Of a stretch of DNA of 64,000 nucleotides, positions 14,256 through 16,067 are shown one piece after another. The notes under the pieces are model-generated. The model saw only the letters and a list, made by a program, of their open reading frames with translations, was not told the origin of the DNA and searched no databases. Every line of letters starts with the position of its first letter. Position 1 is the stretch's first letter. The stretch spans positions 2,568 through 66,567 of the forward strand of contig DYNZ01000007.1 in NCBI GenBank assembly GCA_020720805.1, in the 5' to 3' direction. The translations under genes were made by a program, and so were the position numbers. This DNA is from Leptospira biflexa. GTDB taxonomy: Bacteria > Spirochaetota > DYNZ01.

Positions 14256-16067
14256 ATGAAACCCACATTGATGTTTCACAGCTTCCTTTTCCTTTTTTTT
14301 CTATTTGGCGCGGAAGTGGTATCCGCGCAGGCGCCGATCCATGATTGGAATGGAACCTCCATTCGCTTTACGAATCCTGACGGGAGTTGGGGAGAGTTTG
14401 TCAACCTGCAAGGTCGAAAGGGAGAGGAGGGCAGACAAGGGGAAAAGGGAAATAAAGGTGACAAAGGTGAAAAAGGAGAGAAAGGTGAAAGGGGAGAGAT
14501 TCCAGCACACCAATGGCGTCGTTCGTCTCTTCGCTTTTTGCAAACGGATGGCAATTGGAGCGATTGGGTAGAGCTTCAGGGGCCAGTTGGCTCAAAGGGC
14601 GACAAAGGCGAGCGCGGCTTAAAGGGAGAGAAGGGCGATAAAGGAGATAAAGGAGATCCAGGTGAAAATGGAAAAGCGCCTGCTCATCAGTGGCAGGGGA
14701 CTGCACTACGCTTTGCCTATCCTGATGGCAGTTGGGGAGAGCTTGTCGATCTTCGTGGCACCAAAGGCGAGAAGGGAGATAGAGGTGAGAAAGGTGAGGC
14801 TGGTATAATCGGCGAGCGCGGAGTAGCTGGTGACAAAGGTGATCGAGGAGAGAAAGGAGAGAAAGGAGATCCTGGAGAAAAAGGGACAAGGGGTGTTCAT
14901 GGAGAGCGCGGTTTAATGGGAGATAAGGGAGACAAAGGAGATAAGGGAGATCCAGGTGAAAATGGAAAAGCACCCGCTCATCAATGGCAGGGGAGCGCAA
15001 TACGCTTTGCCTTTCCGGACGGCAGTTGGGGTGAGTATGTCGATCTTCGTGGCGCCAAGGGCGAGAAGGGAGATAGAGGTGAGAAAGGTGAGGCTGGTAT
15101 AATCGGCGAGCGCGGAGTAACCGGTGACAAGGGCGAGCGTGGAGAAAAGGGAGAAAAAGGCGAAGCTGGTATGCGAGGTCAACGTGGCGACAAGGGCGAG
15201 CGAGGTGATATTGGAGCGGCCCCCGCGTATCAATGGCATGGAACGGCTTTGCGGTTTGCAACAGCAGATGGATCATGGGGAGCTTGGGTGGATCTGCGAG
15301 GGAAACCGGCTGATCAAGGTCAACTGGACGCATTAGAGTCGAAAATGGCTTCAATTCAGAAGAATATTGACAAATTAGAGGGATTCAAGGGTGAGCTTGT
15401 TAAATTACGCCAGTTATTTGAAGACACCAAGGAGCTTCAGTCCCAAATGCAGACCAAGATCCGACAAACTGAGGTTGTGACAGCAGCCATGCAGGAGGAG
15501 TTTCGCGATCAAAAACGGGTGTTTTTTAAACAGGCCTCTCAGATTCAGGAAATGGATCGTGCTATTGCCAAAAATAGATCCTGGGCCGAAAGCCATCGTC
15601 ACCAGATCTTTCAAAACCGCATGCAAATAAAGCAACATTCCCAGGAATGGGTAAAAAATCATGAAAAATGGCAGACATTGCGAAAAACAATAGAAACCAC
15701 GCAGCTTCGAGTCAAGGAGCAACTGGCAACAGGGTCGATTCAATACCGCATGGTCACCGTGAAAAAGGCAGAGGTCGTTGATGAGGATGTTTTTCAGGCA
15801 GGTATCATCTTTGGTCAGCAGATTCAAGATCTGTATGGTTTGGATGGGGGGGTTGCGGGACAAATATTAATTGTTTTTAACGGCGGCGAAAAGGAGCTCC
15901 TTGTGCACCACCTTTCTGATAAAGGCGAGCAAAAATTTTTTTTACCGCAAATCGATAAATCCAGAATTAAACACAGCGAAGGGAGCTTTTTTAAGATTTT
16001 CCCTGGGTACAGTTTGAAACTGTTTTTTGATGGTCAGTACTGGCGTCCTTTGCTTTCCAGGCCATGA
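14256..16067 (+). CDS. Exported collagen-like protein: five small W-rich repeat domains separated by four Gly-X-Y tracts, then a coiled coil and a C-terminal domain
   Basis: Signal peptide; uninterrupted G-X-Y runs (GEKGDKGER...); five copies of P.hqW.G..lRF..pDG.Wg.wVdL.G; heptad-like region after the last repeat. Confidence 0.85.

Follow-up and report, generated by a model that had tools for sequence, protein, structure and literature searches.

The window, a 64,000-nucleotide stretch of Leptospira biflexa assembly GCA_020720805.1 (contig DYNZ01000007.1), encodes at 14256–16067 on the + strand a 603-amino-acid segmented collagen-like protein (ATG start, stop codon counted in) within a cluster of MACPF/CDC-like paralogs, here P1 to P6. 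The protein belongs to a small, unnamed bacterial family, termed Col-CC-CTD, in every member of which a signal peptide, collagen, a coiled coil and a C-terminal domain (CTD) follow one another. Genes of this family show a conserved pairing with one clade of the paralogs, that of P4 (16195–17733, +; directly downstream of the collagen gene in the window). None of the building blocks is new in kind. The apparent novelty lies in the recurrent pairing of the Col-CC-CTD fibre family with a single paralog of a large unannotated MACPF/CDC-like cluster, and in its rebuilding here with phage-type segmented collagen. No account of a fibre family paired with a single MACPF/CDC-like paralog turned up in full-text searches of PMC and bioRxiv. 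Tentatively, we favor the reading that the secreted fibre is a recognition or scaffolding partner of multi-paralog pore-formers.

Pairing of Col-CC-CTD genes with the P4 clade

Related loci were scanned for Gly-X-Y tracts and with a CTD profile. The window protein matched a CTD profile built from four family members at 6e-55. A Col-CC-CTD gene was located directly 5′ of a paralog gene, on the same strand, in the window and in L015/L053 (JAHJTV01, a metagenome-assembled genome, MAG), L018 (CALOBT01, Spirochaetota), L044 (JBNKVD01), L045, L047/L049, L054/L055 and L142 (a Leptospirales MAG). Among the close family members with a readable downstream gene, the next gene was P4 in eight of nine, the exception being P0093; in the window the two genes are separated by 127 nucleotides (16068–16194). 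When the paralogs were placed in a neighbor-joining tree, they resolved into orthologous clades, and the seven collagen-adjacent paralogs that could be placed were all in the clade of the window P4. The L142 paralog, a 52-amino-acid N-terminal fragment carrying the P4-type motif GYTIVTNTF, was outside this placement. Pairwise identity between the CTDs of the collagen-bearing loci was 25–48%, and the loci therefore represent separate lineages.

Most collagen-bearing loci have the local order Col, P4, P5, with the remaining paralogs following where the contig continues; the window differs in that the P1–P3 block sits before the collagen gene. For L003, L005, L009, L011, L012, L013 and L043 the position upstream of P4 lay beyond the flank or contig end, and the P4 genes of L003 and L005 were near-identical to those of the collagen-bearing loci L044 and L047. 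A promoter and terminator scan of the window returned sites no more numerous than in shuffled sequence, with no terminator between the collagen gene and P4. The repeated adjacency of the collagen gene and P4 suggests that the fibre and the pore-formers work together.

MACPF/CDC-like paralogs

All six paralogs are encoded on the + strand, P1 at 8734–10308, P2 at 10295–11773, P3 at 11815–13227, P5 at 17783–19324 and P6 at 19308–21380, the last a distant paralog of 690 amino acids with 16% identity to P3. The paralogs have hydrophobic leaders or signal peptides and six conserved Cys residues. A paralog profile search returned 277 homologs, all unnamed, in MAGs of Spirochaetota/Leptospirales, Myxococcota, Bdellovibrionota and a small number of other groups; a locus usually had several of them. 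P3 was modeled with AlphaFold2 (pLDDT 79.5), and the best 50 Foldseek matches of the model in the PDB were all MACPF/CDC proteins, 19 of them at E ≤ 1e-3; they included stonustoxin (6e-6), a PlyB-type pore, C8alpha, BT_3439, pneumolysin and a CDC-like protein. “MACPF-like,” the name that the original prediction gave to the cluster, is to judge from this model and from the motifs below a fair label for its predicted pore-formers.

The MACPF/CDC fold combines a bent central beta-sheet with two clusters of helices, and the MACPF signature is Y/W-G-T/S-H-F/Y-x6-G-G. P1–P5 share the motif F-F-x-x-C-G-x-Y-Y-x-R-S-x-G-R, and a YY...X37...[IL]GR pattern in the paralogs has a loose likeness to the CDCL motif F/Y-F/Y-Xn-YGR, without its Tyr. 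The P6 motif, CGTHFIDS, is nearer to the classical signature than the CGxYYxRS of P1–P5, and P6-like genes come after P5 in other loci too.

Architecture of the collagen-like protein

The open reading frame (ORF) is intact, and a public JGI gene call is identical (603 amino acids; metagenome 3300000234, contig TB_GS09_5DRAFT_10000772). An in-frame TTG lies upstream of the ATG, at 14214. The protein has 16 Trp and zero Cys. A Sec-type signal peptide was read from the sequence at residues 1–24 (14256–14327, +; cleavage motif VSA|QA); it has no lipobox Cys, and the full 603-residue protein has no LPXTG motif. Homologs likewise begin with hydrophobic leaders.

Trp modules and Gly-X-Y tracts were delimited by a regular-expression parse of the protein, which gave five modules of 26–28 residues (consensus APxHQWxGTxLRFxxPDGSWGxxVDLxG) alternating with four uninterrupted Gly-X-Y tracts, all on the + strand. 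Module 1 occupies 14331–14411 (residues 26–52), module 2, the most divergent of the five copies, 14502–14579 (83–108), module 3 14679–14756 (142–167), module 4 14973–15050 (240–265) and module 5 15222–15302 (323–349). The tracts between them lie at 14412–14501 (residues 53–82, 10 triplets), 14580–14678 (109–141, 11 triplets), 14757–14972 (168–239, 24 triplets) and 15051–15221 (266–322, 19 triplets). The Pfam Collagen family PF01391 matched at E = 4.9e-32 (109.9 bits vs a cut-off of 27.2), the best stretch being residues 266–321, in tract 4. Over the 64 triplets, the X position held E 27 times and D 17 times, and the Y position K 29 times and R 13 times; 71% of the X and Y positions were charged and 3% were Pro, and there were 34 (K/R)-G-(E/D) pairs.

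A 283-nucleotide direct repeat (14593–14875 vs 14887–15169, 86% identical) has a spacing of 294 nucleotides, or 98 codons. Modules 3 and 4, with their flanking triplets, are the product of a recent internal tandem duplication (14593–15169, +) of a 98-codon unit made up of a tract end, a Trp module and the start of the next tract. Across the collagen tract, long ORFs on the minus strand (e.g., 14401–15354) are shadow ORFs of the repeat and were rejected as genes. The gene has a GC skew of 0.25, which stands out in the window, because of its purine-rich GGN-GAR-AAR codons.

Residues ~352–485 (15309–15710, +) are predicted to form an alpha-helical coiled coil, from heptad register and scarcity of Pro and Gly. 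These two residues are almost missing from the region, with none beyond residue 382, and a single a/d heptad register is kept over residues ~362–473 with a one-window lapse near residue 383. Weak matches to FliD_N, SMC and Rad50 fit a coiled coil, and an equivalent region was found in every Col-CC-CTD family member. The original prediction had described a signal peptide, five W-rich modules of 28 residues, four perfect Gly-X-Y tracts of about 10, 11, 24 and 19 triplets, rich in K/E/D/R and poor in Pro, and then a long coiled coil and a C-terminal domain; the parse, the composition, the heptad register and the CTD model described below bear out this layout, with module lengths adjusted to 26–28.

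C-terminal domain

The protein ends in a CTD of 118 residues, ~486–603 (15711–16064, +), with the motif G-x-x-G-Q...N-x-G...Q-K...F-D-G-x-x-W-R. Its AlphaFold2 model was confident (pLDDT 85.8) and all-beta, a predicted beta sandwich that would be a putative distal head. A word-indexed homolog search with the C-terminal 283 residues alone gave no matches, and an exhaustive HMMER search of 1.84 billion representatives with the CTD profile gave 62 proteins at E ≤ 1e-3. These fall into three groups: close Col-CC-CTD proteins, other fibre-like proteins that end in the CTD (Bacteroidota-style ones included), and giants with tandem CTDs. The CTD core (profile positions ~64–130) occurs in two to four spaced copies in P0249, P0257, P0261, P0268, P0273, P0292 and P0298 (2,700–5,950 amino acids), and in up to six copies in some proteins of 1,200–1,300 amino acids. 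Since the core is repeated inside giant proteins, the CTD is not solely a terminal head.

Compared with the BFVD using Foldseek, the CTD model matched 24 viral proteins at E ≤ 1e-3, with TM-scores of up to 0.68; among them were tail fibres from phages, and “collagen triple helix repeat” proteins from giant viruses as well as phages. The fold is similar to the C-terminal domains of phage tail fibres and tailspikes and of viral collagen-repeat proteins, and from these matches the CTD is taken as a domain type found at the distal end of viral fibres. Three CTD relatives weakly matched PF25692 (Phage_depo_C, the C-terminal beta sandwich of phage depolymerases), P0254 scoring 27.6 bits against a cut-off of 25. 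Foldseek matches in the PDB were weak (best E 0.01) and less informative than the viral ones, though alike in character, and comprised a tailspike depolymerase, 6o38 (a “chaperone-substrate complex,” sequence-unnamed) and a capsid spike, and a search of PDB sequences with the CTD profile returned chance-level matches alone.

No C1q, lectin or fibrinogen domain was detected in the collagen-like protein by the Pfam scan. A C1q-like head was rejected on this ground (C1q PF00386 and C-type lectin undetected). P0254, a distant CTD relative, has a weak C1q match in another part of its chain.

Origin of the two halves

By its sequence relationships the collagen-like protein is a mosaic of two lineages, with a tail-fibre-type N-terminal half and a Col-CC-CTD C-terminal half. 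The best database relatives of the whole protein were P0002–P0004, metagenomic phage proteins that have a phage-like N terminus, no signal peptide and Trp modules that alternate with Gly-X-Y tracts in the same way, with four modules in P0002. Residues 25–350 matched P0002 at E = 4e-71 and 45% identity with the alternation preserved, and residues 351–603 had no similarity to it (E ~10). The contig of P0003, which is closely related to P0002, is tightly packed and begins with a gene for a portal protein (phrog_64, 1e-50). Residues 351–603 matched P0093 instead (BLASTP E = 1e-14). P0093 is bacterial and has a signal peptide ahead of a single unbroken collagen tract, then a coiled coil and the same CTD. 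The original prediction had named, as findings that would together refute it, homologous clusters lacking the collagen gene and closest relatives in prophage tail regions unlinked to MACPF-like genes. The outcome was divided: the N-terminal half has its closest relatives on the phage contig with the portal gene, the C-terminal half has relatives linked to the paralog clusters, and about six P4-clade genes are without an upstream collagen gene.

The Trp module was found in none of the other Col-CC-CTD family members. These have one continuous Gly-X-Y tract, of 53 and 55 triplets in the two complete ones that were measured and visibly longer in L054/L055. The window protein departs from this plan with its four tracts, five Trp modules and lack of Cys. 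In four members (L015, L054, L044 and P0093) a C-x-C directly precedes the collagen tract (CECEQG, CECEKG, CPCEKG and CNCTRG, respectively) and is probably an interchain disulfide knot; Trp module 1 stands at this position in the window protein.

Matches to phage proteins extend beyond bare Gly-X-Y. The top PHROG matches of the protein were tail-fibre families, PHROG 17587, 6320 and 5073 among them. Both phrog_17587 (tail fiber; 5.5e-49) and phrog_25191 align across Trp modules, the former to residues 23–72 over module 1 and the latter to residues 132–194 over module 3. By tblastn, 18 phage records, from cultured Vibrio, Pseudoalteromonas and Roseobacter phages, had the Trp module in a tail-fibre or collagen-like protein. 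In an annotated tail fiber protein of the ICP2-like Vibrio phage JSF23 it reads SPQYEWEGTRIRFIQPDGTWGPYVDLVG and lies between Gly-X-Y tracts, and it also has flanking Gly-X-Y in Vibrio phages VBP47 and PJN101 and in Roseobacter phage CRP-114. One narrow peptide pattern confirmed at least 109 stretches in IMG/VR viral contigs, and 11 of the 119 best collagen matches, some of them bacterial, contained the module. The occurrence of such W-rich modules in phage proteins, which the original prediction had put forward, is thus documented in PHROG families, cultured phage tail fibres and viral contigs. The module has no Pfam family, and a profile search of PDB sequences gave chance-level matches alone.

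Proposed function of the fibre

The collagen-like protein is most likely exported by Sec and assembled into a homotrimeric fibre. The coiled coil and the beta-sandwich head would set three chains in register, after which the four Pro-poor Gly-X-Y tracts, stabilized by charge pairs, would zip to a triple helix; the five Trp modules may form small beta nodes between collagen segments, in a role like that of the Pf2 repeat in EPclB (see below). The collagen half would have been replaced or expanded by a tail-fibre-type array of Trp modules and Gly-X-Y tracts, afterwards enlarged by the 98-codon tandem duplication. We infer that the distal head binds a surface ligand on a target cell and that the fibre contacts P4, which it would concentrate or nucleate; the other paralogs might then add stepwise, as in the MAC-like two-component CDCL toxins. 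The original prediction had a trimeric stalk that presents, targets or tethers the pore-formers; of this prediction the MACPF/CDC-like fold of the flanking paralogs, the occurrence of the Trp module in phages and the conserved link to the cluster are supported, whereas trimerisation and the proposed function are putative.

Several results weigh against the fibre as a partner of the pore-formers. P4-clade genes in L016, L020, L046, L050, L051 and L004 (partial) have no collagen gene upstream. The original prediction had raised the possibility that homologous clusters always include the gene; this held in seven further loci, where it is upstream of a P4-clade paralog, and did not hold for these genes, about six in number. 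P0093 has no paralog on its 6-kb contig, and no collagen gene was found within the locus sequence scanned for the Myxococcota and Bdellovibrionota paralogs. No anchor is recognizable in the fibre, nor is there any domain with a known affinity for MACPF proteins. RNA runs were sought for co-transcription, and the sequence turned up in DNA metagenomes only. The Foldseek TM-scores of the P3 model were low (~0.2), so that the MACPF/CDC call depends on how uniform the matches are and on motif resemblance, not on tight superposition.

A different role, as a surface or extracellular adhesin or matrix fibre for biofilm, prey or substrate attachment, is unlikely. Such a fibre would share the locus of the pore-formers, and perhaps their regulation, without binding them, its head attaching to a surface and the fibre only holding cells close. 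Bacterial collagen-like proteins are typically adhesins, the source runs carry a biofilm metagenome label, the CTD ends many fibre proteins unlinked to pore-formers, and P0093 is a family member without an adjoining paralog. The best NCBIfam resemblances of the protein were to Scl2/SclB and Lcl, but NF038329, NF038330 and NF046116 gave 122, 92 and 116 bits against cut-offs of 325, 400 and 500, so that the Scl/Lcl scores (122 vs 325; 116 vs 500) are far under threshold, and neither LPXTG nor any other anchor is present; an Scl/Lcl-type adhesin identity was rejected for these reasons. An adhesin would also leave unexplained why, in each of eight separate lineages, the gene lies directly 5′ of a paralog from one clade.

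Another rival is a regulator, chaperone or self-protection factor, a fibre that would bind P4 in the periplasm or on the producer surface and keep the pore-formers inactive or ordered until release. The tight pairing with a single paralog speaks for such a factor, and the known CDCL system has a dedicated protective protein (PMC11169675). It is nonetheless a decidedly improbable explanation, because a collagen fibre of 600 residues with a tail-fibre-type head would be an unusual design for an inhibitor, the small conserved lipoprotein beside the gene is a better candidate for immunity, and about six P4-clade genes do without an upstream collagen gene. Finally, the gene might be a stray phage tail-fibre gene, a prophage remnant or a moron, that came to lie in the cluster accidentally and does nothing there. 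This would account for the tail-fibre PHROG matches, the phage-encoded nearest relatives of residues 25–350 and the commonness of the Trp module and CTD fold in phages, but is very improbable, since a signal peptide followed directly by Trp module 1 takes the place of any virion-attachment N-terminal domain, the ORF is intact, the ORFs scanned in the 64-kb window included no phage gene, and bacterial homologs of the C-terminal half are linked to the cluster in seven other loci, this conserved bacterial synteny largely refuting a prophage remnant.

Returning to the fibre as a recognition or scaffolding partner, its fullest form would be a complement-like weapon of some uncultured Spirochaetota and their relatives. 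A secreted collagenous trimeric fibre, a stalk with a globular head made of phage tail-fibre parts, would bind the surface of a target cell and nucleate five to seven MACPF/CDC-like paralogs stepwise into a hetero-oligomeric pore, from which the small lipoprotein would protect the producer; in the window lineage the stalk would have been swapped for phage-type segmented collagen, pointing to tail-fibre-style module exchange as a route to retargeting. This extended scheme is speculative, and doubtful as a whole.

Bacterial collagen-like proteins and phage collagen fibres were already known, and MAC-like multi-component CDCL toxins have been described only recently. Were the fibre a targeting or nucleating subunit, it would be the first collagenous recognition component of a bacterial pore-forming system, a convergent counterpart of the collagen-stalked recognition molecules that work with the complement membrane attack complex (MAC), and a case in which a bacterial toxin system has taken over receptor-binding hardware from phages. 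Two unannotated modules, the Trp module and the CTD, are now named and bounded; they are widespread in phage and viral fibres, with no Pfam entry or sequence-detectable solved structure.

Comparison with known systems

EPclA and EPclB, from enterohaemorrhagic E. coli prophages, are trimeric fibres of collagen, coiled coil and globular head (Ghosh et al., 2012; PMC3368898). Experiments on EPclA identified PCoil and PfC as trimerisation modules, and in EPclB a small non-collagen repeat, Pf2, lies between two collagen segments and is seen as an internal globule by electron microscopy (PMC3368898). The window protein shares with them a collagen triple helix, predicted here, a coiled coil and a globular C-terminal domain, and its Trp-module nodes resemble the Pf2 node in design. 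It differs in having the coiled coil after the collagen, a signal peptide and five nodes instead of one, and its gene lies in a bacterial chromosome beside pore-former genes, not in a prophage. None of PfN (PF08400), Pf2 (PF03406) and PfC (PF06820) was found in it by a Pfam scan with E values up to 1. The collagen tail fibres of cultured phages and P0002–P0004 have the same Trp module flanked by Gly-X-Y tracts, but are encoded in phage genomes and have N-terminal phage domains, other C-terminal domains and no signal peptide.

For the cluster as a whole, the nearest known system is that of the CDCL toxins of Bacteroidota (PMC7527733, PMC11169675 and PMC11952106). The two-component CDCL toxins form a MAC-like assembly from platform and polymerising subunits, and a surface lipoprotein protects the producer (PMC11169675). 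Both systems encode together several secreted paralogs, of the MACPF/CDC superfamily in the CDCL toxins and MACPF/CDC-like in the window; in the CDCL toxins one is a platform that recruits others and a lipoprotein is protective, and the window has five to six paralogs and a small conserved lipoprotein. No collagen-like or fibre component is mentioned in the available portions of the CDCL sources, “collagen” occurring 0 times in the main text of PMC7527733. The paralogs described here differ further in being found in MAGs of Spirochaetota, Myxococcota and Bdellovibrionota, not in Bacteroidota, and in matching the CDCL motif loosely.

C1q, collectins and ficolins likewise have a collagen stalk and a C-terminal globular recognition head and act alongside the MACPF paralogs of the complement MAC. 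The window protein differs in the coiled coil between stalk and head, and there is no evident protease cascade and no sign of common descent; the parallel with complement is an analogy only. Scl1 and Scl2 of Streptococcus and Lcl of Legionella are secreted bacterial proteins with Pro-poor, charge-rich Gly-X-Y tracts, but the match to them is confined to the collagen part, and the window protein has neither an LPXTG anchor nor a V domain.

Neighboring genes

The window is ordinary bacterial chromosome, with genes for a PfkB kinase, tRNA-Ser, NrfA, ResB, CorA, CarB and IlvD. Two small proteins are encoded on the − strand between P3 and the collagen gene. The first (13240–13617) is a lipoprotein with lipobox LFTGC and the motif GTYKKxxGxYRYDTI; homologs adjoin the collagen gene in L044 (9154–9483, −) and L047 (749–1069, −), with BLASTP E values of ~1e-19 to 1e-30, and the gene was absent from the remaining collagen-bearing loci examined. 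The analogy with BcdI, the immunity lipoprotein of the CDCL system, makes it a candidate for self-protection. The second (13624–14094), between the lipoprotein and the collagen gene, is a small secreted protein of 136–156 amino acids, depending on the start codon, with no homolog in the other loci or in any family library. P1–P6, the two small proteins and the CTD gave no significant match in Pfam, PHROGs, NCBIfam or PADLOC, so that nothing points to a known anti-phage defence system.

Paralog clusters and Col-CC-CTD genes often have beside them a gene for a membrane protein with a cNMP-binding domain (L015 7025–7687, L018 13617–14318, L051 3816–4505 and L141 1253–1570; also L005, L007 and L009–L012), and the window has no copy of it. 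Just 3′ of P6 the window encodes a VWA protein (21629–23683) and a 1573-amino-acid adenylate/guanylate cyclase-AAA-TPR protein (23683–28404). The cNMP-binding neighbors and the window cyclase hint at cyclic-nucleotide control of the cluster. G+C content was 0.34–0.37 over 18001–30000, which spans the P5, P6, VWA and cyclase genes, compared with ~0.42–0.49 elsewhere.

A gene for a CsgG/LpoB-like outer-membrane lipoprotein lies near the cluster in the window (3764–4948) and beside the lone P4 in L051 (6653–7678); it could serve as an export channel for secreted proteins. A small sCache_2/dCache_2 protein is encoded between P4 and P5 in some clusters or near a lone P4 (L044 11483–12007, L047 2875–3357 and L051 1012–1500). 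Between the CsgG-like gene and P1, the window encodes an 864-amino-acid WD40 beta-propeller protein (5726–8320, −), and in this interval an RRM_1 protein was called on the matching JGI contig (L001 805–1095, −).

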